A DNA stretch of 20,757 nucleotides, taken from IMG/VR virus record IMGVR_UViG_3300005673_000046; one strand, given 5' to 3'. Positions 1 through 20,000 of this stretch are shown one piece after another. The translations under genes were made by a program, and so were the position numbers. This DNA comes from an uncultured virus (IMG/VR IMGVR_UViG_3300005673_000046) (Duplodnaviria; Heunggongvirae; Uroviricota; Caudoviricetes). The notes under the pieces are model-generated. The model did no database searches. It was given only the letters and a program-made list of their open reading frames with translations, and was not told the origin of the DNA. Each line of letters begins with the position of its first letter. Positions within the stretch are counted from its first letter, which is position 1.

Positions 1-247
1 CCGCATGCTCGGCGCGGCGGGTGGCGCGCTCGTAGCAGGCCTGGCCGGCCTGTTGGCTGACCTGCTCCAGCGCCACGCACTGCGCCCAGGACTCCAGCAT
101 GTCGGCTGCCAGGCTGTTCTGTTGTGCCTGCAGCGCCCGAATGCGTGCCTCGCGCTCCTCATCGGCCGATGGCTGCACCAGCAGATGCGTCCCGTAGACC
201 AGCGCCAGCAGCGCGGCCGCGGCGACGGCAATGCTTCGCGGCTTCAT
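1..247 (-). CDS. Hypothetical exported/membrane-anchored protein (3' end runs off window)
   Basis: Not in the ORF track; translated by hand: MKPRSIAVAAAALLALVYGTHLLVQPSADEEREARIRALQAQQ... It has a basic N-terminus plus a hydrophobic stretch, a GGGGAG RBS just upstream on the minus strand, and no stop before base 1. Confidence 0.6.
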   Translation of the reverse strand, partial: MKPRSIAVAAAALLALVYGTHLLVQPSADEEREARIRALQAQQNSLAADMLESWAQCVALEQVSQQAGQACYERATRRAEHA

Positions 248-529
248 GCCCTGCTCCCCTGTCTCAGCCGCTCAGGACGCACACACAGCGACGGCAAGCT
301 CATCGAGCTGCCGACCCTGCGAGTAGGCGCCGCCACGGCTGATGGTCTTCGGCGGCTGGCCGCGGCCGAGGGCATGCCCCTGGCCGAGTTCGTTCGGACG
401 CTGTTGGATGCGCGGGTGTTCGGTGCGGCTCATGTCGAAAGCCTAGCCGTCGATCGCATCCGGCGGGTGGTCGGAACCGGGGCCGCAAAAGGCCCGATTC
501 CGGGGTCGCACTGGGAGGTGCGTCGATGA
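185..529 (+). CDS. Putative phage transcriptional regulator (cII position, ribbon-helix-helix-like); start uncertain
   Basis: The C-terminal part LPTLRVGAATADGLRRLAAAEGMPLAEFVRTLL fits a strand-helix-helix pattern. It is ATGA-coupled to the next gene. The annotated start at 5 overlaps the minus-strand gene; ATG 185 is a nearer in-frame option. Confidence 0.55.
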   Translation: MRPVDQRQQRGRGDGNASRLHALLPCLSRSGRTHSDGKLIELPTLRVGAATADGLRRLAAAEGMPLAEFVRTLLDARVFGAAHVESLAVDRIRRVVGTGAAKGPIPGSHWEVRR

Positions 530-873
530 GCCTGGGGGTGGAGTCCGTCGCCACCGGCATCGAACTCAAGCGCGCCGGCCAGCAGCTCGCGCTGGACTTC
601 TCCGGCTCCTGGGCCGAGGAGGTCGTCATGGAGTTCCGCGGCTGGGCGGCCATCGAGAAAGCCCGCGGCCTGGAGCGCACCACGATCGAGCGGTTCCGCG
701 CCACGGCGCGCCACCAGCCGCCGTCGCACAAGGCGTGGGGCGCGCTGCCGCGCCTGCTCGTCGAGGCCGGGCTGATCGAGCCGGTGCTCGATGACACCGG
801 CCAGCCGGTCTACCGGCGCGCGGCTTCACCCAAGACCCACGCGCATCCGGTGCGCCTGTGGAGGCTGCGCTGA
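526..873 (+). CDS. Phage hypothetical protein (possible winged-helix DNA binder)
   Basis: 115 aa, GC3-rich codons, coupled on both sides; motif PPSHKAWGAL...AGLI...HAHPVRLW. Confidence 0.75.
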   Translation: MSLGVESVATGIELKRAGQQLALDFSGSWAEEVVMEFRGWAAIEKARGLERTTIERFRATARHQPPSHKAWGALPRLLVEAGLIEPVLDDTGQPVYRRAASPKTHAHPVRLWRLR

Positions 874-1802
874 TGGGGGCCAAACTCATCCGCCAGGACA
901 TCCTGGAGTCCGAGCGCGTGGCCAAGCTGCCCATGGAAGGGCGCTGGCTGTTCCTGGCCATCCTGCTGACGGCCGACGACCTGGGCCTGTTCGAGGCCAC
1001 GACGCACCGGCTGCACAAGAAGTCCGACCTCAAGCACGAGCACATCGAGCGGCTGCTGCCCATCCTGGCCGACCTCGACCTGATCCGACTGTACCCCGGG
1101 CCCGGCGCCAGAGTCTTCGGGTTCATCCCCCGCTACGGCCAACGTCTGCGGGTCCGGCGCGTCCGATTCCCCCTCCCGCCCATCGAACTGCTGGCCGGAG
1201 ACGAGGACGCCATCAAGAAATTCAACAACTTAGTCGCCGAACTCGCTGACAAATGCGGCGGATTGCAGCATTCCGCCGCAACGCGCGGCGAAGTGCGGCC
1301 TGAACCTGAACCTGAACCTGAACCTGAACCTGAACCTCCTAACGGAGGAATACCAACCACAGGTTCGCTTCGCTCACCTGTGGTCGTCGCCGGAGCTGGC
1401 GCTCCGGGCGACCAGACCGGGGTAATCCCGAAGACCACGGACCCGGCCAAGCCGTGGCTGGCGGTGGCTGAACGGTGCCCGCACCAGAAGCTCGTTGCGC
1501 TGTACCACGAGCTGCTGCCGACGCTGGACCGCGTCGCGCGCTGGGACGACCGCCGCCAGGCGTTTTCCCGCGGACGCTGGCGCGAGGTGGCCATCGAACG
1601 GCGCTGGCGGGACGAGGAGGAGGGGCTGCGGTACTTCGCCCGGTTCTTCCGCTACGTGGCCACCTGCCCGCACCTGATGGGCAAGAGCCCACCGCAGACG
1701 CCGGGCGGTCCGCCGTTCCAGGCCACGCTGGAGTGGCTGCTGCGGCCGACCAACTTCGTGAAGGTCGTCGAGGGCTTCTACGCCCCGAAGGAACGCACAT
1801 GA
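873..1802 (+). CDS. Phage replication initiator protein (lambda O analogue)
   Basis: TGATG overlap at 871-875. N-terminal RWLFLAILLTADDLG, central (PE)n linker and C-terminal CPHQKLVALYHELLP...ATLEWLLRPTNFVKVVEG, an architecture typical of phage replication proteins. Confidence 0.8.
   Translation: MGAKLIRQDILESERVAKLPMEGRWLFLAILLTADDLGLFEATTHRLHKKSDLKHEHIERLLPILADLDLIRLYPGPGARVFGFIPRYGQRLRVRRVRFPLPPIELLAGDEDAIKKFNNLVAELADKCGGLQHSAATRGEVRPEPEPEPEPEPEPPNGGIPTTGSLRSPVVVAGAGAPGDQTGVIPKTTDPAKPWLAVAERCPHQKLVALYHELLPTLDRVARWDDRRQAFSRGRWREVAIERRWRDEEEGLRYFARFFRYVATCPHLMGKSPPQTPGGPPFQATLEWLLRPTNFVKVVEGFYAPKERT
1299..1334 (+). repeat. Perfect tandem repeat (CCTGAA)x6 encoding a Pro-Glu linker
   Basis: Read directly from the sequence. 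Confidence 0.97.
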
Positions 1803-2233
1803 GCAGAGGTTTCAACCCCGACACCGACGACGAGCCGGCCGGTAGTGCGCCGCCGTCGACCCTGCGCTGCAATGCCCACGGTTGCCCGCACCGCAGGACG
1901 GTGCGCACCGAGCTGGGCCAGCTGTGCAGCGCGCACGCCGCGGCGCCGCCGCACGAATGGCCGGCGCTGACGGCGCATCTGCAGCACCTGGCCGAGCGCG
2001 GCCAGCGCGCGGCGCCGCCGCCGGCGGCGCGTGCCGTGATTCACGACCCGGAGCGGCTGCGCCGTGCCGCGGCAGTGCTGCAGGCGCGCATGAGCGGCGC
2101 CGCAGGTAGCCGCGAATGGGCCTACCGGCTGCGTGAGCGCGAACAGCGCGGCGAGCGGCTGTCCAAGGCGCAGCGCGACGCCTGGCGGGCCGCCATACCG
2201 CGGTCCCTGGACCACGAAGCACAGGAGGCCTGA
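1799..2233 (+). CDS. Hypothetical protein at the helicase-loader (P-like) position, with Cys/His motif
   Basis: ATGA overlap 1799-1802; MSRGFNPD...CNAHGCP...LCSAH...REWAYRLREREQRGE. Function inferred from position only. Confidence 0.65.
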   Translation: MSRGFNPDTDDEPAGSAPPSTLRCNAHGCPHRRTVRTELGQLCSAHAAAPPHEWPALTAHLQHLAERGQRAAPPPAARAVIHDPERLRRAAAVLQARMSGAAGSREWAYRLREREQRGERLSKAQRDAWRAAIPRSLDHEAQEA

Positions 2234-2236
2234 GCC

Positions 2237-2539
2237 ATGCCCCGCGCCGCCAGCACGCCCTTCAACACCTACCGGCCGCCCGAACCGGCGCCGCACACGA
2301 TGCCAGGCTGGAGCGCGGCCGAGAACGCGCGCCGCGCGAAGCGCAAGGCGCTGCGCCTGGAGCCGGATGCACCGCGGGTGCCCAGCGAACCGTGCTTCAC
2401 GGTCTGCCCGACGCCCAGCCGCGAGGTCGTCCTGCCGCCGGGCTACGTGAGCCAGCTCAACCCCGCCGACTGCCGCCCGTGGGCGGCGGCCGCTACCACC
2501 CGAGGAGAACCCGATGAAGCCCCCCGTCAGCGCCGCTGA
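2237..2539 (+). CDS. Phage hypothetical protein
   Basis: GGAGG RBS upstream, 100 aa, fits the operon. Confidence 0.6.
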   Translation: MPRAASTPFNTYRPPEPAPHTMPGWSAAENARRAKRKALRLEPDAPRVPSEPCFTVCPTPSREVVLPPGYVSQLNPADCRPWAAAATTRGEPDEAPRQRR

Positions 2540-2804
2540 GGCCATGGAGTCGGCCCGCGTCGAGCGCGTGCGCGCCGCGCGCGCCATCAAGCATCCCGTC
2601 CAGCTCGAAGCCAACTACTACGGCCCGTGGATGAAGCTGGCCGAGTTCGACGCCGCCGACGACTTGGCCTTCAGCACCTGCCGCCAGGCCTGCGAACTGC
2701 TGGCGTCGGTCGACAAGGCGGCCGCGTTCCGCTTCTCGACGGCGGCCGCACCGCGCCGGGTTCTGGCGACCTACACCCTCAAGACCGGCTGGCAGGAGGC
2801 GTGA
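2514..2804 (+). CDS. Phage hypothetical protein
   Basis: GAGGAG RBS, GC3-rich codons, abuts the next ORF. Confidence 0.7.
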   Translation: MKPPVSAAEAMESARVERVRAARAIKHPVQLEANYYGPWMKLAEFDAADDLAFSTCRQACELLASVDKAAAFRFSTAAAPRRVLATYTLKTGWQEA

Positions 2805-3167
2805 ATGGCCTTCCGCGTCCCTGACCAGTTCCGCGTCACACGCGGCCGCCTGGGCACCGAGCGCGGCTCCGGCAACAACGGCGCCTTCGTCCTCCCGGCG
2901 CCACCGCGGTCGCTGTCGAATGCACGGCTCCACTGCATCGCCACCGACAACTTCGGCTGGGAGCACGTCAGCGTCACGCTGAGCGCGCCGCGCATCCCGA
3001 CCTGGGCAGAGATGTGCTACGTCAAGAGCGTCTTCTGGGAGCCCGAGGACACGGTGCTGCAGATCCACCCGGCCGAGTCGGAGTACGTGGATCTGCACCC
3101 TCACTGCCTGCACCTGTGGCGACCGATCGGCACCAGCTTCCCGGTGCCGCCGACGTTCCTGGTCTGA
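2805..3167 (+). CDS. Conserved phage protein (DUF7694-like)
   Basis: Motif WEHVSV...PTWAEMCYVKSVFW...QIHPAESEYVDLHPHCLHLWRP. Confidence 0.75.
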   Translation: MAFRVPDQFRVTRGRLGTERGSGNNGAFVLPAPPRSLSNARLHCIATDNFGWEHVSVTLSAPRIPTWAEMCYVKSVFWEPEDTVLQIHPAESEYVDLHPHCLHLWRPIGTSFPVPPTFLV

Positions 3168-3170
3168 GCC

Positions 3171-3701
3171 GTGGAAATCCAGCTCGTGCGCCGCGCCGAT
3201 GTCGTCCTCTCCGAGGAGGACAAGGCCGCGCTGCGTCGGCTGGTCACGACCATCGTGTGCGGGCTGGGCGAGGCCAACCAGCGGGCCTGGCTGCGGCTGT
3301 GGGCCCGGATGTGGCGCATGGAGCCCGGCGAAGTCCAGACGATCTGGACGCACAAGGAGCGCCTGGGCTGGTTCCACCGCAAGCACATGGCCCTGGAGAC
3401 GAGGGTCTTCGAGGGGCAGGAGCGGTTCGAGTCCTTCGAGTCCTTCCGCGACTGGCTCAAGATCGGCGCTGGCCACGTCGAATGGCATGCCGGCCCGCGC
3501 GGCGGCATCGTGCCCATCCCGAAGTCGATCAGCTACGCGAGGCTGGGGCAGGACGAGATGGAGGAGTTCCACGCGGCGGCCGTGGCCTTCCTGCGCACCG
3601 AGCGCGCCGCCAAGTGGCTGTGGCCGCGCATGCCGGCCGCGCAGCGTCAGGGTGCGATGGACGCGATCCTGGGCGCGTTCGGCGCCTTCGGGGAAGGCTG
3701 A
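3171..3701 (+). CDS. DUF1367-like nin-region protein
   Basis: Motifs FHRKHMAL, FESFRDWLKIGAG and PKSISYARLGQDEMEEF. Confidence 0.75.
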   Translation: MEIQLVRRADVVLSEEDKAALRRLVTTIVCGLGEANQRAWLRLWARMWRMEPGEVQTIWTHKERLGWFHRKHMALETRVFEGQERFESFESFRDWLKIGAGHVEWHAGPRGGIVPIPKSISYARLGQDEMEEFHAAAVAFLRTERAAKWLWPRMPAAQRQGAMDAILGAFGAFGEG

Positions 3702-3710
3702 TGCAACCCG

Positions 3711-3995
3711 ATGCAGTCCAGGAACAAGCCCTCGATGACTCGCGCGGAGCGCGAGCACGTCGAGCGGGTGAAGTTGCTGCCGTGCTCGGTGTGCGACACC
3801 GGCGGCGGCTACTCGGCGCCGAGCGAGGCGCACGAAATCGAGCAAGGCATGTGGTGGTTGTCAGTCGCGCTGTGCGCGGAGTGCCACCGCGGCAGCGTGC
3901 TCGGATGGCACGGCCAGCGCCGTATCTGGGCGATCAAGAAGATGACCATGCTCGATGCCCTGGCGGTGACGATCCGCCGGCTCATGGGCTACTGA
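3711..3995 (+). CDS. Ref-family/HNH-like zinc-binding nuclease
   Basis: CSVC...HEI...LCAECHRG...GWHG pattern, in a nin-region context. Confidence 0.7.
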   Translation: MQSRNKPSMTRAEREHVERVKLLPCSVCDTGGGYSAPSEAHEIEQGMWWLSVALCAECHRGSVLGWHGQRRIWAIKKMTMLDALAVTIRRLMGY

Positions 3996-4043
3996 TGACG
4001 GCATGCCGGCAGCCGACGATGCCGGCGACACAGGAGAGGCACC

Positions 4044-4151
4044 ATGCCCACCAAGACCGCCCCGATGAAGAACGCCAAGCCCAAGCCCGGCCAGAAGCCG
4101 CCGCCGGCCAAGGAGAGCAAGGCCGAGAAGCGCCGCGGAAAGGCCTGCTGA
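4044..4151 (+). CDS. Small Lys/Pro-rich basic peptide (35 aa)
   Basis: AGGAGAGG RBS; MPTKTAPMKNAKPKPGQKPPPAKESKAEKRRGKAC; GC3-rich codons; fills the gap before the Q-like gene. Confidence 0.65.
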   Translation: MPTKTAPMKNAKPKPGQKPPPAKESKAEKRRGKAC

Positions 4152-4161
4152 AGGTCGCGCG

Positions 4162-4770
4162 ATGACCGTGCCGGGCGATCGCCCCACCATCCCAGAGCGG
4201 TATGCGCGCGCACTGGAGTCCTCGCATCTGGAAGCCACGCCAGAGCGCCAGGGCGACGTGGACGTGCTCATCGCCGCGGGGTGGGCCAAGGATTCGCTCG
4301 GCACGGCCCTGTACCGACTGCGCGCGGAGTACGACGCGGTGAACAAGCGCGAGCTCGCACTGGTCGCCAACAGCCGCATCGCGCGCGCCATCGTGATGTC
4401 GCAGCTGCAGTCGCTGCAGCCGACGAAGCTGCGCCTGACCGCCTACGCGCTCAAGCAGGCCACCATCAACCGCGTGATGCTCAACGACGCCGACGTCATG
4501 CGCATTGCCGCGGCCGCGCTGGCGCACTGGATCGACGATCGCTGCCCGGCCTGCACGGGCCGCGGGTTCAGCGGCGGCGCTGGCCAGCCCATCGTGCTGT
4601 GCTCTCTGTGCCGCGGCACCGGCACGCAGCGCCTGAGCGGGAGCCGATCCAAGCGCCTCGGCCAGAACAACACCGAACACCAATTCGGCGCTCTGCTGCT
4701 GGAGCGCATGGACCGAAAGACCGCCTGGGTCGCAAGCACCATGGCCCGCTGGCTGCGGAGGTTCGCGTGA
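4162..4770 (+). CDS. Antitermination Q-like protein with zinc finger
   Basis: CPACTGRG...CSLCRGTG zinc finger, about 200 aa, located after nin-like genes as lambda Q is. Confidence 0.7.
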   Translation: MTVPGDRPTIPERYARALESSHLEATPERQGDVDVLIAAGWAKDSLGTALYRLRAEYDAVNKRELALVANSRIARAIVMSQLQSLQPTKLRLTAYALKQATINRVMLNDADVMRIAAAALAHWIDDRCPACTGRGFSGGAGQPIVLCSLCRGTGTQRLSGSRSKRLGQNNTEHQFGALLLERMDRKTAWVASTMARWLRRFA

Positions 4771-4988
4771 GCGACGACCTGGTGCCCGCCGCGGTGATCG
4801 AGAGGATGACCGGCTATCGCCAGCCGGCCGCCCAGCTCGCCGAGCTGCACCGGCAGGGCTTCTGGCGGGCTCGTCGCCTTCGCACCACCGGCAAGGTCGT
4901 GCTCGAGCGGCCGCACTTCGAGGCCGTGAGCAGCGGCGCAGACGCGCAGTTCGGCCGCACGCGCCAGCCGAAACTGGCCCCACCGTAA
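4767..4988 (+). CDS. DUF4224-like small DNA-binding (excisionase-like) protein
   Basis: GTGA overlap; IERMTGYRQPAAQLAELHRQG...GKVVLERPHFEAV...PKL. Confidence 0.7.
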   Translation: MSDDLVPAAVIERMTGYRQPAAQLAELHRQGFWRARRLRTTGKVVLERPHFEAVSSGADAQFGRTRQPKLAPP

Positions 4989-4998
4989 GGAGACGAAT

Positions 4999-5505
4999 GT
5001 GCTCAGCGCATCCCGCGCCGAACAGATTGAGCGCGGCCTCAACGAGATGGCCAAGCGCGTGCTGCGATCCGTTCCGGTCAACGAGACGTGGACCACACAC
5101 CAGATCGACCAGGACTTGCGTCGCGCCGGCAGCCGAGCCGACCGTGACGTCATCCTGGGATGCCTGGGCCGCCTCGTGAAGGCCGGGCTGATCGACGAAC
5201 CAGGCCCGGGTCACTTCCGACGCCGCAAAGTCCGTCCACCGTACATCACCGAAGTCACGAAGCCCAGCGCACAACCACAAGGAGACGTCATCGTGCCTGA
5301 CGCAACGCCGCACGCCGCGGAACGAGCATCGACCCTGGATCAGCTCGCAAAGGTCGCCTCCGAGCTGCGCGCTGCCGCGGCGCGCCTGGAGGAGATGGCG
5401 CGCGACATCGACGACCTGGCCGTCGAGATCGTCGAGGCGCAGGAGAAGACCAGCGCCGACGTGGTCAAGCTGCGCCAACTGCAGGCGCTTCTCAAGAACC
5501 TGTGA
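4999..5505 (+). CDS. Hypothetical protein, N-terminal winged-helix-like domain plus C-terminal coiled coil
   Basis: TAAGGAG RBS; ILGCLGRLVKAGLIDEPGPGHFRR followed by a heptad-rich tail. Confidence 0.75.
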   Translation: MLSASRAEQIERGLNEMAKRVLRSVPVNETWTTHQIDQDLRRAGSRADRDVILGCLGRLVKAGLIDEPGPGHFRRRKVRPPYITEVTKPSAQPQGDVIVPDATPHAAERASTLDQLAKVASELRAAAARLEEMARDIDDLAVEIVEAQEKTSADVVKLRQLQALLKNL

Positions 5506-5585
5506 CCCTGGAGAAGACGATGCACACACCCACGATCAAGCACTACCGCGTCACCGTCTGGGCCGCTGGCCCCGGAGCGTGAAGC

Positions 5586-5765
5586 ATGGGAACGACGACG
5601 GTATGGGTGCTGGTGTTCTTCATCGGCGGATGGACGCACAACGGAGGGCCTGCGGTGGTTGACAACATTGCTAGCGCGCAAGAGTGCGAGAAGCTGGCGC
5701 AGGCGATCCAAGACATTCGCGGCGAGGCGCGCTATCGGTGTGTGCCGGTGGCGAAGGTGAAGTAG
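5586..5765 (+). CDS. Small hypothetical protein (59 aa), cassette-like gene A
   Basis: Translated by hand: MGTTTVWVLVFFIGGWTHNGGPAVVDNIASAQECEKLAQAIQDIRGEARYRCVPVAKVK. GGAG RBS at 5574-5577; the stop is 2 nt before attC-like site 1. Confidence 0.7.
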   Translation: MGTTTVWVLVFFIGGWTHNGGPAVVDNIASAQECEKLAQAIQDIRGEARYRCVPVAKVK

Positions 5766-5767
5766 CG

Positions 5768-5830
5768 GCCCAACGTTGCCGGTAAGCGGCCGGGCCGCCA
5801 GGCCTGGTCCGCTTGACTGGCGGGTTGGGC
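5768..5830 (-). other. Integron attC-like recombination site 1 (63 bp)
   Basis: Minus strand reads GCCCAAC-ccgcc-AGTCAAGC-ggaccaggcc-tggc-ggcccggcc-GCTTACC-ggcaac-GTTGGGC. This gives RYYYAAC/GTTRRRY ends, 5 and 6 nt spacers, 8/7 nt L boxes and two unpaired bases (+ strand G5815, T5808). Confidence 0.88.
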
Positions 5831-5859
5831 GGCTGGTGGAGAAACGAGAAGGAGCATGC

Positions 5860-6057
5860 ATGCACACAGCACCGATGTCAGACAGCCAAGGCGAGTTCGC
5901 CGAGTTCAAGACCCAGCCCGACGTGCCTTGCCGCAAGTGCGGCGTGCACGCGGTGAGCATGCGCGAGTGGGAAAGCTCGTGCGGCGGCTGGGAAGACTAC
6001 CAGTACAAGTGCCACCACTGCGGCCATACGTGGTGGGTGGAAGGAATCGACGCATGA
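5860..6057 (+). CDS. Small zinc-ribbon protein (65 aa), cassette-like gene B1
   Basis: GAAGGAG RBS; CRKC...CHHCGHTW. Confidence 0.75.
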   Translation: MHTAPMSDSQGEFAEFKTQPDVPCRKCGVHAVSMREWESSCGGWEDYQYKCHHCGHTWWVEGIDA

Positions 6058-6281
6058 CGTACTGGTGGCTCGTTGAGAACTTCACTGCCGAAGGGCATTC
6101 CACCGGGCTCTATATGGCGTGCCAAGTGAACATGACCCTGACCGCCGACGTGCACAAGGCTCGCAAGTTCCGCCGCCAACGCACGGCCGAGTTCCGTGCG
6201 CTGGACATGCGTGACGCGAGGCGCGGCGACTGGCGGGCCGTGGAGCACGGCTTCGACGACAGCAAGACGCCCAACGGATAG
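6054..6281 (+). CDS. Small hypothetical protein (75 aa), cassette-like gene B2
   Basis: ATGA overlap with B1; MTYWWLVENF...AVEHGFDDSKTPNG; stops inside attC-like site 2. Confidence 0.7.
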   Translation: MTYWWLVENFTAEGHSTGLYMACQVNMTLTADVHKARKFRRQRTAEFRALDMRDARRGDWRAVEHGFDDSKTPNG

Positions 6282-6323
6282 TTGACCTGCGCCGCAGGCG
6301 TCAGGTCCAACGCAGGGTTGGAC
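6269..6323 (-). other. Integron attC-like recombination site 2 (55 bp)
   Basis: Minus strand reads GTCCAAC-cctgc-GTTGGACC-tgacgcc-tgc-ggcgca-GGTCAAC-tatcc-GTTGGGC. Same box structure and same two-bulge asymmetry as site 1; the second spacer is 5 rather than 6 nt. Confidence 0.78.
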
Positions 6324-6340
6324 CGGCGCCGCGCGCGTCG

Positions 6341-6383
6341 CAAACCGGTTTGGCTGCCCAGCAGGCCGGGGCGCCGCCACAGT
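6341..6383 (+). promoter_or_regulatory. Candidate activator-dependent late promoter (Mor/C-type site plus -10-like hexamer)
   Basis: Perfect 12-bp palindrome CAAACCGGTTTG (6341-6352); CACAGT at 6378-6383, 7 nt before ATG 6391. Mu has a C-dependent promoter upstream of gene I. Confidence 0.5.
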
Positions 6384-6390
6384 GCACGCC

Positions 6391-7578
6391 ATGCCCCGGC
6401 CGCTGCCCCTCATCGCCCTGCTCGCCGCCACCATGCCGGTGGCCGCGGACGGCACCGCGCAGCTGCTGCCTGTGGGCGAATTCACGGCGCGTGACGGGCG
6501 GCCCGGCAACGGCCTGACCTGGAAGATCACCGATGCACAGGGGCGGCTGCTCGCCGAGCGGCTGAACCTGGTCGCGTCGCTGACGCCCATCGTCTACGAC
6601 TACGACCACGCGACGATGACGACGCGCGGCACCGGCAACCTGGCGCCCGCTGCAGGCTGGATCAAGAGCGTGAGCTGGGTCGAAGGCCAGGGCCTCATGG
6701 CCAAGGTCGAGTGGACCGAGCGCGCCAGGAAGCTGATCGAGGCCAAGGAATACCGCTACTCGAGCCCCGTCATCGAATACGACGAGGACACCGGCGAGGT
6801 CACCGGCGTGCTGATGGCCTCCCTCGTCAACTACCCCGCGCTGCTGGGCATGGACGCCGTGCAGGCGGCCCTGTCCGGGTTCGCTTCCTCGTCAACCAAG
6901 CCGCCCGGCCGCGAGGCCGGCACCCACGGAGACCCCGCCATGTCCAAGACCATCGCCCTTGCCGCGCTGCTGCCGCTGATCGGCCTGGGCGCCAGCGCCA
7001 CCGAAGACGAAGCCGTGGCCCGCGTCACCGCCCTGCAGGGCGAGCTCGAGCAGCTGCGCAAGCGCCCGCTGCTCACCGAGGCGCTGGCCACCGCGCTGGG
7101 CGTGGCGGCGACCGCCGACGAGGCCGCCGCGCTGAGCGCCGTGGCCACGCTCAAGACGGCCGCCGGCGGCGCCGGCGACGCGGTGCGGCAGCTCACGGCC
7201 CTGCAGGGCGAGCTCGCCACGCTGCAGGGCGAGCTGGCCCAGATGCGCACCGCGCAGGCCGAGACCGAGATCGCGCGCCTGGTCGACGACGCCATCGCCG
7301 CCGGCAAGTTCGCGAACGCGCAGCGCGACCAGCTGCTGGCCACCGGCCGCAAGGACCGCGCGCTGCTGCAGGGCCTGATCGCCAGCGCCGTGCCCATCGC
7401 GGCACTGGCCGGCACCAACCTGCAGGCCACCCGCGCCGCGGCCGCCGCGGCCGCCGGCGGCGCCGCCCCGCAGATGACGCCCGAGGCGCGCCAGATCGCC
7501 GCGCTGATGGGCATCACCGAGGCCGAGTACCTGAAGTTCAAGGCCGACCAGGCCAAGGCCCAGGGCGCCACCGCCTGA
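6391..7578 (+). CDS. Mu-like prohead protease (gpI) with C-terminal scaffold
   Basis: QLLPVGEFTARDGRP, YDYDHAT, APAAGWI, VEWTERA...EYRYSSPV, SLVNYPALLGM, followed by an Ala-rich helical region. Confidence 0.93.
   Translation: MPRPLPLIALLAATMPVAADGTAQLLPVGEFTARDGRPGNGLTWKITDAQGRLLAERLNLVASLTPIVYDYDHATMTTRGTGNLAPAAGWIKSVSWVEGQGLMAKVEWTERARKLIEAKEYRYSSPVIEYDEDTGEVTGVLMASLVNYPALLGMDAVQAALSGFASSSTKPPGREAGTHGDPAMSKTIALAALLPLIGLGASATEDEAVARVTALQGELEQLRKRPLLTEALATALGVAATADEAAALSAVATLKTAAGGAGDAVRQLTALQGELATLQGELAQMRTAQAETEIARLVDDAIAAGKFANAQRDQLLATGRKDRALLQGLIASAVPIAALAGTNLQATRAAAAAAAGGAAPQMTPEARQIAALMGITEAEYLKFKADQAKAQGATA
6940..7578 (+). CDS. Nested in-frame scaffolding protein (Mu gpZ analogue)
   Basis: Internal GGAG (6928-6931) and an in-frame ATG at 6940, right after the protease domain. 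Confidence 0.7.
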   Translation: MSKTIALAALLPLIGLGASATEDEAVARVTALQGELEQLRKRPLLTEALATALGVAATADEAAALSAVATLKTAAGGAGDAVRQLTALQGELATLQGELAQMRTAQAETEIARLVDDAIAAGKFANAQRDQLLATGRKDRALLQGLIASAVPIAALAGTNLQATRAAAAAAAGGAAPQMTPEARQIAALMGITEAEYLKFKADQAKAQGATA

Positions 7579-7623
7579 CCGGGCCGCGCCGACGCAACGC
7601 CAACCCCCGCACCGGAGCCTCAC

Positions 7624-8034
7624 ATGGCCGCCACCAAAGACATCAACACCCGCCAGGTCGCGGGCCTGCGCCGCGCCTTCCCGGTGGCGGCCAGCACCCT
7701 CATCCATGCCGGCACCATCGCCTGCCTCAACGCCAGCGGCCTGCTCACCAAGGGCGCCGTCAGCACCACGCTGAAGGCCGTGGGCGTGGCGCCCAGGCGC
7801 ATCGACAACGCCAGCGGTGCGGCCAGCGCCATCCGCGGCGAGGTCGAGACCGGCGTCTTCGGCCCCTTCAAGAACAGCGCCGCCGGCGACGAGATCGTGC
7901 TGGCCGACGTCAACGCCAACTGCTTCATCGTGGACGACGAGACGGTGGCCAAGACCAACGGCACCAACACCCGCAGCGTGGCCGGCGTCGTGTGGGACGT
8001 CACCGCCGAGGGCGTCTGGGTCAAGTTCAACTGA
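7624..8034 (+). CDS. Putative head decoration/cement protein
   Basis: 136 aa, beta-rich, between protease and capsid; CFIVDDETVAKT...RSVAG...GVWV. Confidence 0.75.
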   Translation: MAATKDINTRQVAGLRRAFPVAASTLIHAGTIACLNASGLLTKGAVSTTLKAVGVAPRRIDNASGAASAIRGEVETGVFGPFKNSAAGDEIVLADVNANCFIVDDETVAKTNGTNTRSVAGVVWDVTAEGVWVKFN

Positions 8035-8074
8035 CCGCCCGCACCCACACCCAGCACACCGACCGGAGAGCCCC

Positions 8075-8977
8075 ATGCTGATCAACTCCACCAACCTGCG
8101 CGAGCTGGACACCCAGGTGCAGCTCCTCTTCAACCGCGGGCTGCAGCGCACGGTGACGCCGTGGCAGAGCATCGCCCTGCAGTCCAGCAGCAACGCGGCG
8201 GAGAACCTGTACCCGCTGTTCAAGGAGCTGGGCGGCATCCGCGAGTGGCTGGGCGACCGCGTGGTCCAGAACGTGGAGCGCGATGGCTTCCGGCTGGTCA
8301 ACCGCGACTGGGAGGCCACCTGGGGCATCGACCGCAACCACATTCTGGACGACAGCTTCGGCACCCTGGCGCCGATGTTCGAGATGGCCGGCCAGGAGGT
8401 GGCCAGCTTCCCCAGCGAGAAGGCCTACGGCCTGCTGCGCGTCGGCCACGAGACGCTGGGCCCGGACGGCCAGTTCTTCTTCGACACCGACCACCCGCTG
8501 GCCAGCGGCGTGGGCAGCAACGACATGGGCGGCACCACGCTGCCCGTGGAGCAGGCCTGGTACCTCATCGACGAGAGCCGCGTGTTCAAGCCGGTGATCT
8601 ACCAGCTGCGCCAGTCCTTCAACCTGGTGCGCATGTTCAACCCGGACGACCACAACGTCTTCTTCCTCAAGAAGTACATCTGGGGCGTGGACGGCCGCGC
8701 GGCCTTCGGCTTCAGCCCCTTCTGGCAGCTGGCCATGCGCAGCCGCCAGGCGCTGGACGAGACCAACGTCAAGGCCGCGATGGTGGCCATGAACAAGCAG
8801 CGCAACCACCAGGGCAAGCCCATCGGCGCGTCCGCGACCACCATCGTGGTGCACCCCGAGCAGGGCGAGCTGGCGCGCGACCTGTTCAGCCGCGAGCTCA
8901 TCGCCAGCGGCGGCGCGGGCGTGACCAACACCCTGCGCAACCGCCTGCGCGTGGTGGTGGCGCACGAGCTGCTGTGA
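8075..8977 (+). CDS. Mu-like major capsid protein (gpT family)
   Basis: GGAG RBS; IREWLGDR, NRDWEATWGIDRNHILDD, DGQFFFDTDHP, WYLID...KPVIYQ, GVDGRAAFGFSPFWQLA. Confidence 0.93.
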   Translation: MLINSTNLRELDTQVQLLFNRGLQRTVTPWQSIALQSSSNAAENLYPLFKELGGIREWLGDRVVQNVERDGFRLVNRDWEATWGIDRNHILDDSFGTLAPMFEMAGQEVASFPSEKAYGLLRVGHETLGPDGQFFFDTDHPLASGVGSNDMGGTTLPVEQAWYLIDESRVFKPVIYQLRQSFNLVRMFNPDDHNVFFLKKYIWGVDGRAAFGFSPFWQLAMRSRQALDETNVKAAMVAMNKQRNHQGKPIGASATTIVVHPEQGELARDLFSRELIASGGAGVTNTLRNRLRVVVAHELL

Positions 8978-9007
8978 CCCGCCGCTGAACCCCGAGGAGA
9001 CCTGAAC

Positions 9008-9229
9008 ATGGCCAAGAACCCGCAGACCCCCTCCGGCAAGGCTGCAGCGCTGCGCGTGGTGAGCAAGAGCCCGATGGGCGCCTTCCGCCGCGCGGGCTAC
9101 ACCTTCACCGCCGAGCCCACGGTCATCCCGCTGGCCGAGCTGAGCGCCGAGCAGGTGCGGGCCATCAGGGCGACGGCGCTGCTGGACGTGACCGAGACCG
9201 AGATCGAGCCGGCCAAGGCCGAGGGCTGA
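9008..9229 (+). CDS. HI1506-like Mu head-associated small protein
   Basis: GAGGAG RBS; FRRAGYTFT...LSAEQVRAI...LLDV; immediately after the capsid gene. Confidence 0.75.
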   Translation: MAKNPQTPSGKAAALRVVSKSPMGAFRRAGYTFTAEPTVIPLAELSAEQVRAIRATALLDVTETEIEPAKAEG

Positions 9230-9339
9230 CCGCACAACCCACGCGGAAGGCAGGGGCCCGCAAGGGCCCGTGAGTGTCCCCGCCGGCCAGGTGCCGGCGG
9301 GGCTCTCCGAAGAGCCAACGCACCCACCGCCACCCCACC

Positions 9340-9771
9340 ATGAGCGCCACGCCCTACACCGAGCCGCAGGCGCTCGTCGACGCCTTCGGCGAAGCCGAGC
9401 TGGTGGAGCTGACCGACCGCGCCACCCCGCGCGCGAACGAGGTGGACTTCGTGGTGGCCCAGCAGGCGTGCGACCGCGCCACCGCGGAGATCAACGCCGC
9501 GCTGGCCGGCCGCTACAGCCTGCCGCTGCAGACGGTGCCCGAGCTGCTGCGCTACCTGGCGCTGGACCTGGCGCGCTTCTACCTCTACGACCGCGAGCCG
9601 CCGAAGATCGTGCAGGCGCGCTTCGACGCGGCGCGCGAGACGCTGCGCGAGCTGGGCACCGGGCGCAAGCACCTGGGCGCGGACGCGGCCGGCACCAGCG
9701 TGGCCGAGCGCCCGCAGGACCTGGCCGTGCTGAACGCCGGCGCGAAGGACTTCGCACGGGGGGCCTGGTGA
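9340..9771 (+). CDS. Mu gp36-like head-tail adaptor (DUF1320)
   Basis: FGEAELVELTDR...ATAEINAALAGRYSLPL..VPELL...DLARFYLY. Confidence 0.9.
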   Translation: MSATPYTEPQALVDAFGEAELVELTDRATPRANEVDFVVAQQACDRATAEINAALAGRYSLPLQTVPELLRYLALDLARFYLYDREPPKIVQARFDAARETLRELGTGRKHLGADAAGTSVAERPQDLAVLNAGAKDFARGAW

Positions 9772-10226
9772 CGTGGAGCACCGACGCGCTGTGGCTGGGC
9801 CCGGCGATCGCCGCGCGGCTGCGCGAACAGCTGCCGGCGCTGCGCACGGCCGAGGTGATGGACGACCTGACCCCGGACGCCTACCCGAAGCAGCTGCCCG
9901 CCGCGGTGGCCATGCTGCAGGACCTGCGCCCGCAGGGCAGCGACGGCCGGGTGAGCACGGCCCTGGTGGAGGCCGACTGGCTGGCCGTGCTGGTGGTGGA
10001 CAGCCGCCGCGCGGACCGCGACGCGCAGCGCGCGGCCGCCGGCCCGCTGATCAGCCAGGCGGTGCGCGCGCTGCACGGCTGGACGCCGCCCGGCTGCGCG
10101 CGGCCCATGAGCTGGGTGCCCGGCGCGCCGCGGCCCTACTTCACGCGCAACTTCACGGCCTACCCGCTGCTGCTGCGCACCGCCTTCACCACGCGCAGCG
10201 AGCCCGGCCTTCCCGCGCTGACCTGA
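9768..10226 (+). CDS. Mu gp37-like tail terminator/completion protein
   Basis: GTGA overlap; IAARLREQLP...WLAVLVV...AGPLISQAVRALHGWTP...AYPL; synteny. Confidence 0.8.
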   Translation: MTWSTDALWLGPAIAARLREQLPALRTAEVMDDLTPDAYPKQLPAAVAMLQDLRPQGSDGRVSTALVEADWLAVLVVDSRRADRDAQRAAAGPLISQAVRALHGWTPPGCARPMSWVPGAPRPYFTRNFTAYPLLLRTAFTTRSEPGLPALT

Positions 10227-10256
10227 CCTGAAACCTTCTTTCGCACGGAGCAACCC

Positions 10257-11015
10257 ATGAGCGAAGTCGTCACCAAGAGCTATGTCGGCATCGGCCGCGT
10301 GTGGGTGCGCCCCTTCGGCGTGACCGTGCCTTCCGTGCCGGCGCGCCGGCACGTGGGCAACGTGAGCGGGCTGGTGCTGCGCCACACCCTGGACATCCAG
10401 CGCCAGCCGGACTTCACCCGCCCGGGCGGCGGCACGGCCATCCGCCGCGAGCGGATCGAGGCGGTGGAGGCCAGCATGACCTGGCTGCACTTCAGCCCCG
10501 AGAACTGGGCCGTGGCGATGGCCGCCACGCTGCACGACGTGGCCGCCGGCACTGGCGTGGTGGAGGTGGTGAAGGCGCACCGGGGCAGCATCAGCGAGCT
10601 GGCGAACCTGCCCACCAGCATCACCAGCGTGACCGACGGCGCCACGCCCACGCCGGTGACCTTCACCGCGGGCGACGACTACGAGCTCAGCGCGGCGGGC
10701 GTCTACATCCCGACCGGCAGCGCCATCCCGGACGGCAGCGACATCACCGTCACGTACAGCCACGCCGCGCAGAAGCGGCTGGAGGGCAGCATGGGCACGG
10801 CCACGGTGCTGGACGTGCTGTTCGAGGGCCTGAACGACGCCGACACGCAGAAGCCCGTGGTGCTGAACCTGTGGCGCATGAGCGTGCCGCCGGCCGAAGA
10901 GCTGAACCTGATCGGCCTGGAACTGGGCGAGATGCAGCTCAGCGCCGAGCTGCTGAAGGACCCCAGCAAGGGCGCGAACGTGAGCGCGTTCTACCGCGCC
11001 CGCATGCTGCCCTGA
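10257..11015 (+). CDS. Major tail tube protein (non-contractile tail)
   Basis: GGAG RBS; SYVGIGRVW...VGNVSGL...LFEGLNDA; lies between the gp37-like gene and the tape measure gene; no sheath gene present. Confidence 0.8.
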   Translation: MSEVVTKSYVGIGRVWVRPFGVTVPSVPARRHVGNVSGLVLRHTLDIQRQPDFTRPGGGTAIRRERIEAVEASMTWLHFSPENWAVAMAATLHDVAAGTGVVEVVKAHRGSISELANLPTSITSVTDGATPTPVTFTAGDDYELSAAGVYIPTGSAIPDGSDITVTYSHAAQKRLEGSMGTATVLDVLFEGLNDADTQKPVVLNLWRMSVPPAEELNLIGLELGEMQLSAELLKDPSKGANVSAFYRARMLP

Positions 11016-11053
11016 CGCGCGCCGCCGCGCGCGCATAGCCTCCCGCACTGCTC

Positions 11054-14000
11054 ATGGCCACCGGCGGCGTGCGGGAGGTTGGCGTCCGCATCAAGGTCGG
11101 TGCCACCGGCCTGGAGGAAGCCACCAGGCTAAGCCGGAGCCTGAAGGACCTGGGCGTCGACGCCGAGGCGCTGGACAAGCGCGCCGGCGAGCTCTCGGCG
11201 GAACTGACCAGGCTGGGCCAGCAGCAGGCGCTGATCGACGGCTTCAAGCGCAAGAAGGCGGCCACCGAGGAGGCCGCCAAGGCGCTGCAGCAGGCGCAGG
11301 AAGCCGCCCAGAAGCTGGGCCGCGAGTTCGGGGCCACCGAGGAGCCCACCAAGCGCCAGGAGCAGGCCCTGGCCAGGGCGCGCGCCGAGGTCACGAAGGC
11401 CAAGACGGCCTACCAGGAAAGCGGACTGGCGCTGCAGACGGCCAGAAAGGGGCTTTCCGACGCCGGCATCGGCAGCGACGAGCTGGCGGCCGCACAGGTG
11501 CGGGTGCGCAAGCAGACGACCGAGACGCAGCAGGCCGTCGCCGAGCTGACCAACCGCTACCGCGCCGCGGAGGGCCAGGCCAAGCTCAGCGCGCAGCAGC
11601 AGGCGCAGCTGGCCCGCGCCACAACCGAGGCAGGCAGCGCCAGCACGCGCGCTGCGAACGAGCAGGCGGCCGCCGGCCAGAAGGTGGCCGGCAGCCTGGA
11701 GGGTGTGCAGCAGCGCCTGAGCGCCATCGGCAAGCTGGCGGTGGGCGGCGTGCTGGGTGCGGGCAGTCTGAATTTCCTGCGCGGCGTCACGGCCACCGCC
11801 GACGCCTTCAACAACCTGCGCGCGCGCATGCAGCTCGTCACCGGCGAGGGGCCGGCGCTGGATGCGGCACTGCTGTCGGTGCAGGAGATCGCGCTGCGCA
11901 CGGGTGCGAGCCTGGAGAACACGGGTACCCTGTTCACGCGCGTGCTCTCCGCCGGCCGCGAGATGGGCCTGGCGCAGGCCGACGCGCTGCGCCTGACCGA
12001 GAGCATCAATCAGGCGGTGGCCATCAGCGGCGCCAGCGCGGCCGCCTCCGACGCGGCCATCACGCAGCTGATCCAGGGCCTGCAGAGCGGTGTGCTGCGG
12101 GGCGAGGAGTTCAACAGCGTCGTCGAGCAGAGCCCGCGGCTCGCGCAGGCGCTGGCCGACGGCATGGGCGTGGCGCGCAGCGAGCTGCGCGGCCTGGCCC
12201 AGGACGGGAAGATCAGCGCCGAGACCGTGATCCAGGCGCTGCAGTCGCAGGCCGACGTGCTGGAGCGCGAGTTCGGCCAGCTGCCGCAGACCGTGGGCCG
12301 CGCGGTGGAGAACCTGAACACCGCCTGGTCGGTGTTCGTGGGCAACCTGGACCGCACGACCGGCTTCACCTCGGCGGTGGCCAGCGGCATAGGCTTCATC
12401 GCCGACAACCTGGACGAGCTGGCGGCGGTGGCCGGCCGTGCCGGCGCCGTGATCGTGGCGGCGCTGGCCGTCAAGGCGGCCGGGGCCCTGCGCGACCTGG
12501 CCACCCAGGCGCTGGCCAGCGCGAGCAGCTTCGGCGTGCTGCTGACCAGCATCGAGAAGATCCCGCGCACGGTGAACATCGCGATCGCGGTGACGGGCTT
12601 CGAGGTCGGCTTCCAGATCGGCCAGATGCTGCGGGAGAACAGCGCGCTGGCCAGGCAGCTGGGCGTGGCGGTGACGGAGTTCTTCACCAACATCGTCCGC
12701 GACCTGCAGTTCGTGGTGGAGGCCGGCCGGGCCATCTTCACCGACGACACCATCGGGGCCGCGTTCGAGCGGCTCAAGCAGCGCGCGGCGGAGCAGCAGG
12801 CCATCTTCGCGGACCTGTACGCCGACGCCCGCCGGGCGCCGCAGGCGGTGGCGCAGGCGGCCGCCGGCGCCGAGCAGAGCCTGGGTGCGCTGGGCGCCCA
12901 GGCCCAGGGCGTGGGCCTGCAGCTCGGCCGGGCCGGCGCTGCCGGTGCCGCCGGAGTGCAGCAGCTTGGCCAGGCGGCCGACACCGCGGCCGGCGCGCTG
13001 GCGGCGCTGGTCGCCGGCGCCACGGCGGCGCTGCCCAAGGTGGGCGAGACGGCTGCGGCGCAGGCCCGCGAGCTGGCCAGGCTGGCGGAGGGAAGCGAGG
13101 AAGTGCGCCGCCGGCTGGCGGACGGCATCCCGGCGGCGCTGGAGAAGCTCAACGGCACCCAGCTCGTGGAGTTCCGCGCGGAACTCGAGCGCGCGCTGCA
13201 GGGGTCCGCAAAGGGCGCGGAGGTGCTGCAGGCCGCCTTGCAGGAGGTGGGTCGTCGCGCCGCGCAGGCGCTGGGCGTGGATCTGGCAGGAGCCAGCGCC
13301 ACGGTGACCCGGCAGTTCGCGCAGCAGATGGATGCGCTGTCAGCGCTGATACGGGCCCTGCCCGTGCTCGAGCGCACCGGCGTCGACACCGCCCGCGTGG
13401 TGGCCGACGCGCTGGCCAAGATGGTGGACGGCGCCAGGAGCCAGGCCGAGCTGGACGCACTGCGCACGCGCATCGAGGCGCTGGGCAAGGCCGGAGAGCT
13501 GAGCCGCGAGCAGGTCGTGCGGCTCATGGACACCATCACCGCCAAGGCGGCCGAGGCGGCCAGCAGCGTGAGCCTCATCGACGAGGCGCTCAAGACATTC
13601 GGCATCACGACCCAGGCCGAGCTGAAGAAGACGGCCGACAACTTCAAGCAGGCCTGGGACCGCATCCGGGAGAACTCCACCGTCACGCTGGACCAGAAGC
13701 GCCAGGCCTTCGTGCAGTACGCGAACGCCGCGATCGCGGCCAACGGCGGCGTGATCGACAGCCAGATCCGCAGCCAGGCGCAGGCCTTCAAGCTGGCCGT
13801 GGAGGTGGACAAGACCGGCAAGGCGGTCGTCAGGGCGATGGGCGAGGGCGCCTTGGCCAGCGACCAGCTGAGCGGGGGCTTTCGCACCGCGGCCGAACAG
13901 GCACGCAAGCTGGGGGCCGAGGTGGCGACCCTTACAAGCCAGGTTGGCAACCTCACCGCTGGCTGGGAAAAGGCCCTGCGCGCGCGCAACGCCGCCGTGC

Positions 14001-14488
14001 AGAGCACGCTCACCTGGGAAGGCCGCGACGCCGCCGGCAACCTGGACCGCACCTTCGTGGGCAGTAGCGNNNNNNNNNCCTTCACTCCGCCCCCGGACAA
14101 CAGCGGCGACTGGGTGTGGATGGCCACCGCCGCCAGGCCGGGCGGCGAGTGGGTGCTGACGCCGGAGGCGAGCGCGCGGCGGTTTGCCGACCAGGAGCAG
14201 GCGCGCGGCCTGGTGCCGGTGCGCGACCCGTCAGGCTCCGTGCGCTATGTGCAGCCCAGCGGTGCACCTTCCACCGGCGCACCGTCGGCGGCCGCACCGG
14301 CCTCTGCGCCCGTGCCTGCCCCTGCGCCTGCACCGCAGCCCAGTGCAGCGCCGGCGCCGACGAGCGTGGTGGAGATCCGCTTCACGCGCGGCGACGGCAG
14401 CTACGTGCCAGCGGTCGTGAGTTCGCAGCAGGCGGCCGACGAGCTGGCCGCGCTGTTGCGCGAAGAGATGGAGCGCCGGGGCGGATGA
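11054..14488 (+). CDS. Tail tape measure protein (contains a 9-N gap at 14070-14078)
   Basis: 1144 aa, Ala/Gln-rich helical; motif AAITQLIQGLQSGVLRGEEFNSVVEQSPRLAQALADG. Confidence 0.95.
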   Translation: MATGGVREVGVRIKVGATGLEEATRLSRSLKDLGVDAEALDKRAGELSAELTRLGQQQALIDGFKRKKAATEEAAKALQQAQEAAQKLGREFGATEEPTKRQEQALARARAEVTKAKTAYQESGLALQTARKGLSDAGIGSDELAAAQVRVRKQTTETQQAVAELTNRYRAAEGQAKLSAQQQAQLARATTEAGSASTRAANEQAAAGQKVAGSLEGVQQRLSAIGKLAVGGVLGAGSLNFLRGVTATADAFNNLRARMQLVTGEGPALDAALLSVQEIALRTGASLENTGTLFTRVLSAGREMGLAQADALRLTESINQAVAISGASAAASDAAITQLIQGLQSGVLRGEEFNSVVEQSPRLAQALADGMGVARSELRGLAQDGKISAETVIQALQSQADVLEREFGQLPQTVGRAVENLNTAWSVFVGNLDRTTGFTSAVASGIGFIADNLDELAAVAGRAGAVIVAALAVKAAGALRDLATQALASASSFGVLLTSIEKIPRTVNIAIAVTGFEVGFQIGQMLRENSALARQLGVAVTEFFTNIVRDLQFVVEAGRAIFTDDTIGAAFERLKQRAAEQQAIFADLYADARRAPQAVAQAAAGAEQSLGALGAQAQGVGLQLGRAGAAGAAGVQQLGQAADTAAGALAALVAGATAALPKVGETAAAQARELARLAEGSEEVRRRLADGIPAALEKLNGTQLVEFRAELERALQGSAKGAEVLQAALQEVGRRAAQALGVDLAGASATVTRQFAQQMDALSALIRALPVLERTGVDTARVVADALAKMVDGARSQAELDALRTRIEALGKAGELSREQVVRLMDTITAKAAEAASSVSLIDEALKTFGITTQAELKKTADNFKQAWDRIRENSTVTLDQKRQAFVQYANAAIAANGGVIDSQIRSQAQAFKLAVEVDKTGKAVVRAMGEGALASDQLSGGFRTAAEQARKLGAEVATLTSQVGNLTAGWEKALRARNAAVQSTLTWEGRDAAGNLDRTFVGSSXXXXFTPPPDNSGDWVWMATAARPGGEWVLTPEASARRFADQEQARGLVPVRDPSGSVRYVQPSGAPSTGAPSAAAPASAPVPAPAPAPQPSAAPAPTSVVEIRFTRGDGSYVPAVVSSQQAADELAALLREEMERRGG

Positions 14489-14874
14489 GCACGACCACCA
14501 TCACCGTCGGCGCCACCGTGCTGACCCTGGACCACCCGCTGCTGTGGGAGGACGAATTCGGCTGGGAGCCCGTGGTCCAGACGCGCCGCACCACGGTGAC
14601 CGGCGCGCAGAACGTTCAGGCGCAGGCGATGCTGGCCGGCCGGCCGGTGACGCTGGCCAGCGGCGGCTGGGTGCGCCGCAGCCAGCTGCTGCAGCTGCAG
14701 GCCTGGCGCGAGCAGCCCGGCCTGGTGCTGCAGGTGAGCCCGCGCGGCGGCACGCCGATGTCGGTGACGTGGGACACCAAGGGCGGCGCGCTGCAGGCCG
14801 ACATGGTGCAGCCCTGGGCCTTCCCTGAAGACGGCGAGCTGTACCGCGTGCGGCTGCGCTTCTTCACCGTCTGA
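14485..14874 (+). CDS. Putative distal tail/tail tip protein
   Basis: ATGA overlap; LLWEDEFGWEPV.Q...TGA...AGRPVTL; first gene after the tape measure gene. Confidence 0.75.
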   Translation: MSTTTITVGATVLTLDHPLLWEDEFGWEPVVQTRRTTVTGAQNVQAQAMLAGRPVTLASGGWVRRSQLLQLQAWREQPGLVLQVSPRGGTPMSVTWDTKGGALQADMVQPWAFPEDGELYRVRLRFFTV

Positions 14875-14897
14875 CCACCAAAGACTAGACCACTGCC

Positions 14898-16523: not shown

Positions 16524-16537
16524 AAGCCTGACCCATC

Positions 16538-17710: not shown

Positions 17711-17713
17711 TCC

Positions 17714-18076: not shown

Positions 18077-18089
18077 CGAAGACCGACGT

Positions 18090-19940: not shown

Positions 19941-20000
19941 GGTGCTACCGTGCAGCGGCACCGACAGACGCCCGACAAGCCATTCTGGAGGCACTCGGCC

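Follow-up and report, generated by a model that had tools for sequence, protein, structure and literature searches.

Reversed attC sites and hairpin-first cassettes in a prophage-like sequence and its phage relatives

Integrons are treated as bacterial gene-capture devices, with cassettes that are read from one promoter and in one orientation. Two hairpins resembling integron attC sites, at 5768-5830 and 6269-6323, lie among phage genes in the sequence analyzed here (20.7 kb, 71% G+C; the window, meaning this whole stretch of DNA), and both appear reversed relative to the genes around them. This locus raises the questions of whether the hairpins are genuine attC sites, which segment of DNA travels with them, and what a reversed arrangement means for a phage.

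The window reads as a prophage, and the explanation that we find best as a whole places it in a high-GC Burkholderiales host of the Rubrivivax/Ideonella/Aquincola group. Its early region contains an O-like replication initiator (858-1802) and a NinB-like gene (3171-3701). Small unknown genes separate the latter from a Mu-like head protease of the gpI family (6382-7578, plus strand; PF10123, 2e-76; phrog_328, 4e-77), which is the first backbone gene 3' of the second hairpin and is followed by a gpT-type capsid gene (7817-8977), a head-tail adaptor, a major tail protein, and a tape measure gene (11054-14488). The attC pair is at the joint between the nin-like early region and the Mu-like head module. 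The early region (1-6400) meets the head module (6382-20489) directly, terminase, portal, and lysis genes being absent between them; the prophage may be defective, or genome arms may have been fused, or DNA lost, at an attC. A blastn comparison with named phages returned nothing beyond weak protease matches to Ralstonia phages, and the head protease has no close relative apart from the window's own record. The nearest IMG/VR record (G001) is a fragment (CheckV, 34% complete) that begins at window base 6254. Viral contigs yielded no relative for a 168-aa protein encoded upstream of the array; its single metagenome match is a contig (L101) that is identical to window positions 1-5914 and breaks off within the first cassette gene (gene A, below). 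The window includes 11 N, nine of them at 14070-14078 within the tape measure gene, one at 18093, and one elsewhere.

The bottom strand of an attC site reads 5'-RYYYAAC (R'), L', a variable terminal structure, L'', a spacer, and GTTRRRY-3' (R''); in L'' two bases are extrahelical, one at position 16 (usually G) and the other at position 23/24 (T), and a 6-bp stem separates them, the spacer contains 5 to 6 unpaired bases, and the total length is 57 to 141 bp (Nivina 2016, PMC5027507). Site 1 (5768-5830, 63 nt, fold of -25.7 kcal/mol) begins with GCCCAAC at 5768-5774, which fits RYYYAAC, and ends with its perfect complement, GTTGGGC, at 5824-5830. Its sole single-base bulges are T5808 (position 23) and G5815 (position 16), both in the 3' arm of the plus strand and separated by a 6-bp stem. 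Folded as single-stranded DNA, positions 5760-5840 of the plus strand reach -30.0 kcal/mol (z = -5.07), with 0 of 200 shuffles as good; the minus strand reaches -22.3 kcal/mol (z = -2.62), with 2 of 200 shuffles as good.

Site 2 (6269-6323, 55 nt) has GCCCAAC at 6269-6275, within the end of the second cassette gene (gene B, below), and GTTGGAC at 6317-6323, with one mismatch to the complement of the left box. Folded alone it reaches -14.2 kcal/mol, and the bulges are T6301 (position 23) and either C6307 or C6308 (position 16), again in the 3' arm of the plus strand. When the flanks are included (6265-6335), the minimum-energy fold favors a competing 8-bp hairpin at 6304-6324; the attC fold is recovered when the site is folded alone and in the covariance-model alignment. 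Position 16 of site 2 is C where G is usual, and G is what site 1 has. The central spacer is 5x5 unpaired in site 2 and mostly paired in site 1, where it leaves a 2x1 loop. At 55 nt, site 2 is two below the quoted length range, and related sites measure 52 to 121 nt. In both sites, counting from the 3' end of the plus strand, the bulges stand at 16 and 23 with the 6-bp stem between them, and the plus strand is therefore the bottom (recombinogenic) strand.

For an independent measure of site identity and polarity, we built a covariance model (R1) from 13 short attC bottom strands located beside true integron integrase (IntI) genes in host-family genomes. The training sites were taken from the DNA on the array side of intI by a strand-symmetric box search and a positional pairing score; R1 is thus our own model of 13 sites and not the published IntegronFinder model, and one of its training sequences (from L036) comes from a prophage-borne integron. 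With filters off, R1 matched site 1 over its full length on the plus strand at 45.5 bits (E = 5.8e-10), compared to 13.2 bits on the minus strand, and site 2 over its full length on the plus strand at 41.4 bits (E = 6.8e-9), compared to 11 bits on the minus strand; these E-values are rough because the calibration was shortened. Only these two sites were found in the 20.7-kb window. The next match (17.5 bits, partial, E = 0.013) is a box-less segment at 16188-16243 on the minus strand, inside a tail gene, and is probably due to chance. Chance is excluded as the origin of the two attC matches.

We conclude that 5768-5830 and 6269-6323 are genuine attC-type sites, reversed relative to their genes. 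A preliminary description of this DNA had placed the unpaired bases in the arm distal to the preceding gene's stop and had read the canonical R''-L''-L'-R' order on the minus strand, so that the sense strand would be the recombinogenic one; the folds of both sites agree with its coordinates, and the bulge positions and the polarity of the R1 matches bear out its reading of the strand. The two sites are co-oriented on the same strand, 439 nt apart, with no intI in the window, and together they constitute a CALIN, which requires a cluster of at least two nearby, co-oriented attC sites and the lack of an integrase. The distance threshold is the one used in IntegronFinder. A complete integron (intI, adjacent attI, and cassette promoter) was not found within the 20.7-kb window, and none of the 23 window ORFs scanned has an intI or Phage_integrase domain.

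Two genes lie between the sites, both on the plus strand. Gene A (5860-6057, 65 aa) has a GC3 peak in frame and encodes a four-cysteine, zinc-ribbon-like protein with a weak Zn_ribbon_8 match below the cut-off. Gene B (6054-6281, 75 aa) overlaps gene A by ATGA and is conserved in relatives, with 64 to 97% identity across a 12-sequence alignment. Each belongs to a protein Atlas cluster of viral hypothetical proteins, and Pfam, PHROGs, and the protein Atlas gave no function for either. Comparing gene B with 15 copies in the plus frame, we counted 428 substitutions, of which third codon positions account for 276, first positions for 92, and second positions for 60; the plus frame has no stops and is open in all 15 copies. 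GC content by codon position is sense-like on the plus strand alone, and the minus-strand ORFs of the region have a noncoding pattern. Together with the GC3 frames and the conservation of the viral proteins, these data uphold the earlier assignment of all three ORFs to the plus strand. Gene B reads past the inferred crossover point, and the spacer of site 2 supplies its last codon and its stop (TAG, 6279-6281); the C-terminal tail therefore varies with the neighboring site, reading TPNG* here and differing in L005, L012, and L014.

Upstream of site 1 and outside the cassette, a 59-aa ORF (5586-5765, plus strand, in the GC3 frame) has no family match in Pfam or PHROGs, no function from the protein Atlas, and no attC upstream of it according to R1; it is either backbone or a cassette remnant. 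In the adjacent region (5510-5582), a 20-codon ORF at 5520-5582 begins MHT after GGAG, and by eye its start region resembles the start region of gene A in L002, agreeing at about 17 of 20 bases. This ORF may be what is left of an older cassette start.

The homology of gene B ends at 6275/6276 in comparisons with 15 viral and 8 genomic loci; against the viral loci, the end of nucleotide homology spans 6266-6307 and is most often at 6275/6276, the final C of site 2's left box or its 3' neighbor. Past this point, each viral locus has its own hairpin ending in GTTRRRY. In six loci (L008 to L012 and L014), the same hairpin precedes the pair of zinc-ribbon gene and gene B, and the DNA 5' of its AAC is different everywhere. 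Because homology breaks at the left AAC box, the unit runs from C5774 to A6274, hairpin first. It measures 501 nt on the plus strand and takes in what remains of site 1, then gene A, and then gene B as far as the AA of the R' box that follows. By analogy with attC sites, in which cleavage occurs at the A/C step of AAC (Nivina 2016, PMC5027507), cleavage here would fall between A5773 and C5774 and between A6274 and C6275.

We also compared pairs of sites from different loci with interiors at least 80% alike. Unrelated upstream flanks combined with similar downstream flanks were found in 24 pairs, and the opposite pattern was found in none; the remaining pairs had ambiguous upstream flanks (five) or differed on both sides (two). 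The independent junction events behind these 24 informative pairs are few, because 23 come from one cassette family in nine loci; the other is a gene A cassette (L002/L018).

Contigs from four public runs (X4 to X7), compared with window positions 5300-6800, include variant forms. A 3,477-nt contig (X4), from a further sample of the study from which the window may derive, shares 5300-6276 without a difference (977 bases), and then continues into about 1.8 kb of unrelated sequence, the first letters of which resemble an attC L box. The X7 contig matches 5860-6276 and ends there, and the X6 contig covers 5860-6392 with a different sequence upstream. In the X5 contig, the match begins at 5768, with unrelated DNA before it, and ends at 6041, where a new AAC box and sequence like an L box take over; because this diverged copy of gene A (22 differences) runs into an attC, gene A also exists as a one-gene cassette without gene B. 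As contigs rather than reads, these data establish that such forms exist and do not give their frequency, and we excluded uncovered stretches and a single X5 joint (5418 to 5934, 21-letter-sided) as evidence. The homology breaks, junction pairs, and contigs agree with the earlier proposal that each site travels at the 5' end of its genes, as the unit 5774-6274. A canonical cassette has its ORF on the top strand and its attC 3' of the ORF; here, the hairpin travels 5' of bottom-strand ORFs.

We surveyed the orientation of attC sites and ORFs in phage loci and in IntI-linked arrays. The phage set consisted of 23 loci fetched through gene B (135,743 bases), which represent one phage and host clade. 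At E <= 0.001, all 63 R1 matches in these loci were on the strand of gene B; together with the window's two they give 65 sites, which group into 55 clusters at 90% identity. Across five entire phage records, the 34 matches shared one strand within each record (34/34). In the IntI-linked arrays, all 47 matches (13 of them training sequences) were on the intI-coding strand, which is the canonical geometry. A geometric classifier put 34 of 34 sites of the phage loci and 18 of 19 sites of the arrays on the expected strand, with 0.4 to 0.8 matches per shuffled set. A geometric match on the "wrong" strand in L084 was not reproduced by R1.

We used two methods to call the coding strand of cassette ORFs, because longest-ORF strand calls are unreliable at about 70% GC. 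Phage cassette ORFs were on the bottom strand in 41 of 44 cases by the GC3-weighted call and 28 of 44 by longest ORF. ORFs of the IntI-linked arrays were on the top strand in 27 of 31 cases by longest ORF and 20 of 31 by GC3; when L036 was omitted, these counts were 26 of 28 and 20 of 28. L036 was dropped as a chromosomal control and counted apart since it proved to be a prophage-borne integron, and the longest-ORF caller errs on its cassette that holds three conserved minus-strand genes. Within this one clade, the inversion is consistent in related phage arrays (63/63 sites; 41/44 ORFs) and opposite in host-family IntI-linked arrays (26/28); the preliminary description had proposed a comparison of this kind. 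Methyltransferases have been reported in phage cassettes (Qi 2023, PMC9892861), and L005 has a DNA methyltransferase gene (1026-2063; phrog_67, 2.8e-76) immediately ahead of its array's first attC (2058-2144).

Integron integrases are encoded in the host family and in some of the related phages. Relatives of gene B occur in metagenome-assembled genomes labeled Rubrivivax, Ideonella, Aquincola, and Burkholderiales. True IntI (here, TIGR02249 above the curated 265-bit cut-off) was present in three of five genomes with gene B prophages and in 29 of 61 sampled host-family genomes. Two phage records, G008 (47 kb; IntI at 426 bits) and G011 (55 kb; IntI at 412.8 bits), have the integrase gene directly downstream of the array, on the ORF strand; no IntI was found in records G007, G009, and G010. 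L009 has an intI-like ORF at the same position as in G008 and G011, judged solely by blastn to other intI genes. L036 (11328-15745, in a prophage of genome G003) is a complete phage-type integron in an early operon, with the order phage integrase, intI, cassettes, RecE/RecT-like genes, and repressor, all on one strand, and its cassettes and attC sites are 84 to 97% identical to those of the phage loci. It also has a PAPS-reductase-like gene between intI and the first attC, and its RecE/RecT-like genes lie upstream. In the relatives with their own intI, the geometry of intI and attC is ordinary and just the ORFs are flipped; cassettes and intI are therefore co-transcribed. In L019, a resolvase/small-terminase region and the large terminase flank the array, a placement similar to the window's.

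Our preferred reading, to which we assign a probability of roughly 0.8, is that the window carries a two-site CALIN of integron attC sites with a reversed, hairpin-first cassette on which IntI acts in trans. The plus strand of each site would fold into the bottom-strand hairpin that integron integrases bind; IntI, provided by either the host chromosome or another phage in the same host, would cleave at the A/C positions given above, and the 501-nt unit, consisting of the hairpin, gene A, and gene B, could then be excised or inserted. Recombination of this kind may be ongoing at the locus. With its ORFs on the bottom strand, the cassette has its site on the 5' side of the genes, which would be transcribed as part of the phage operon.

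The preliminary description offered, as an example, a reason for the flip: tuning to the strand that is single-stranded while the phage replicates. As the main driver, this would mean selection for a layout in which replication or packaging leaves the bottom strand unpaired, so that phage cassettes would fold and recombine more. Folding and excision are indeed greater for bottom strands on the lagging-strand template, and bacterial chromosomal integrons hold their bottom strands on the leading-strand template (Richard et al. 2024, PMC13108822). The use of one strand for all sites in each phage record (34/34, five records) fits this idea as well. However, what is flipped relative to attC is the ORFs; attC itself keeps the canonical orientation to intI in the phage integrons, and the reversed layout occurs at two genome positions, beside the phage integrase and before packaging or head genes. 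We therefore consider tuning to the replication strand unlikely as the reason for the flip, and the arrangement can be explained without it.

The hairpins might instead be relics, that is, former attC sites kept as mRNA stem-loops that act as stabilizers, weak terminators, or translation controls, without current recombination in the prophage. Each hairpin is indeed in a 5' untranslated position, and in site 1 the plus strand folds better than the minus strand (-30.0 versus -22.3 kcal/mol) because of G-T/G-U pairs. Moreover, in 14 of the 55 nonredundant related sites the hairpin loop contains the start of an ORF that has a Shine-Dalgarno-like motif; such ORFs are on the plus strand and are translated through the 3' arm and the R'' box (for example, L014:2693-2786, L004:3216-3336, and L013:2449-2562), and neither window site is among them. 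Against this stand the X4 contig, in which 977 identical bases give way to a different attC-like sequence exactly at the crossover box, and the complete bottom-strand geometry that has been kept. Nor do the hairpins look like terminators: no T-run follows either of them, the terminator and promoter scan was blank at both, and none of the five terminator-like sites called in 1-20000, a number not above the shuffle level, falls at either hairpin. That the sites are now only mRNA structures is, in our judgment, a minor possibility.

The mosaic breakpoints could also have been produced by a process other than IntI, such as RecET/Red-type annealing or another recombinase acting on the 7-bp boxes, in which case the likeness to attC would be incidental. 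Lambdoid phages are known for mosaic joints at short conserved sequences, and related prophages encode RecE/RecT-like proteins beside the arrays. Yet homologous exchange needs no conserved asymmetric geometry, and all of the sites have extrahelical bases at 16 and 23; furthermore, IntI genes adjoin some of the arrays, and the same cassettes and attC sites occur in the IntI-linked array of L036 at 84 to 97% identity. This makes a process unrelated to IntI very improbable. The idea that the real genes are on the minus strand and the cassettes canonical can be set aside almost entirely: 13 of 15 gene B copies keep one minus frame open and a 197-aa minus ORF covers 5997-6590, but the 276/92/60 substitutions at positions 3/1/2 and the 15 open copies belong to the plus frame, sense-like GC by codon position is found solely on the plus strand, and the 197-aa ORF has a noncoding GC pattern (0.70/0.62/0.74) and runs across site 2 into locus-variable DNA.

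A CALIN with hairpin-first cassettes putatively served by IntI in trans can be compared with several known systems. Among 10,705 phage genomes, three integrons, one In0, and 17 CALINs have been described, the bottom strands of phage attC sites were recombined by IntI1, and two phage arrays were described as having a structure typical of bacterial arrays (Qi 2023, PMC9892861). The window resembles these CALINs and integrons in that attC clusters lie inside phage genomes without an integrase, some phages having complete integrons; in the sections considered here, however, Qi 2023 (PMC9892861) gives no rule for the orientation of ORFs to attC, whereas bottom-strand ORFs in hairpin-first cassettes run throughout this phage family. 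Full-text literature searches did not find reversed cassettes described as a feature of phage arrays.

The window shares R boxes and extrahelical positions with host-family chromosomal integrons, along with similar L-box sequences and, in site 2, the unpaired spacer. Unlike those integrons, in which 26 of 28 ORFs are on the top strand and attC follows the gene, it has bottom-strand ORFs and neither intI nor attI. The phage-borne integrons (G008, G011, and L036) draw on the same cassette pool with ORFs reversed likewise; the zinc-ribbon gene, the gene B cassettes, and the attC sites are common to them at 84 to 97% identity. In contrast to the window, which has two sites before a head protease, they have intI at the downstream end of the array, beside the phage integrase. 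Many promoter-bearing toxin-antitoxin cassettes of sedentary chromosomal integrons are inverted as well. Such cassettes are expressed independently of Pc (Richard et al. 2024, PMC13108822), which is a further likeness; the phage cassettes are presumably expressed by read-through from phage operons. Whereas inverted toxin-antitoxin cassettes are exceptions in bacterial arrays, the reversed layout is the norm in these phages.

A broader proposal, which we advance tentatively and rate somewhat below an even chance, is that phage cassettes form a pool set apart by orientation and that attC x attC exchange by IntI drives phage mosaicism. If so, phage cassettes would be compatible with bacterial IntI and arrays in recombination and incompatible with them in expression, because their ORFs occupy the bottom strand and are transcribed together with intI and phage operons. 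Expression, and not recombination, would then act as the filter on gene flow between phage and bacterial arrays. The standard rule of annotation, in which the ORF precedes its attC, would assign genes to the wrong sites in phages. Exchange between attC sites could also join whole genome arms, and could in this way account for the direct junction of nin-like early region and Mu-like head protease here, where terminase and portal genes are missing in between. Phages would be shuffling small accessory genes by means of the host's integron integrase or their own, and reversed phage cassettes would provide a concrete, site-specific mechanism for part of phage genome mosaicism.
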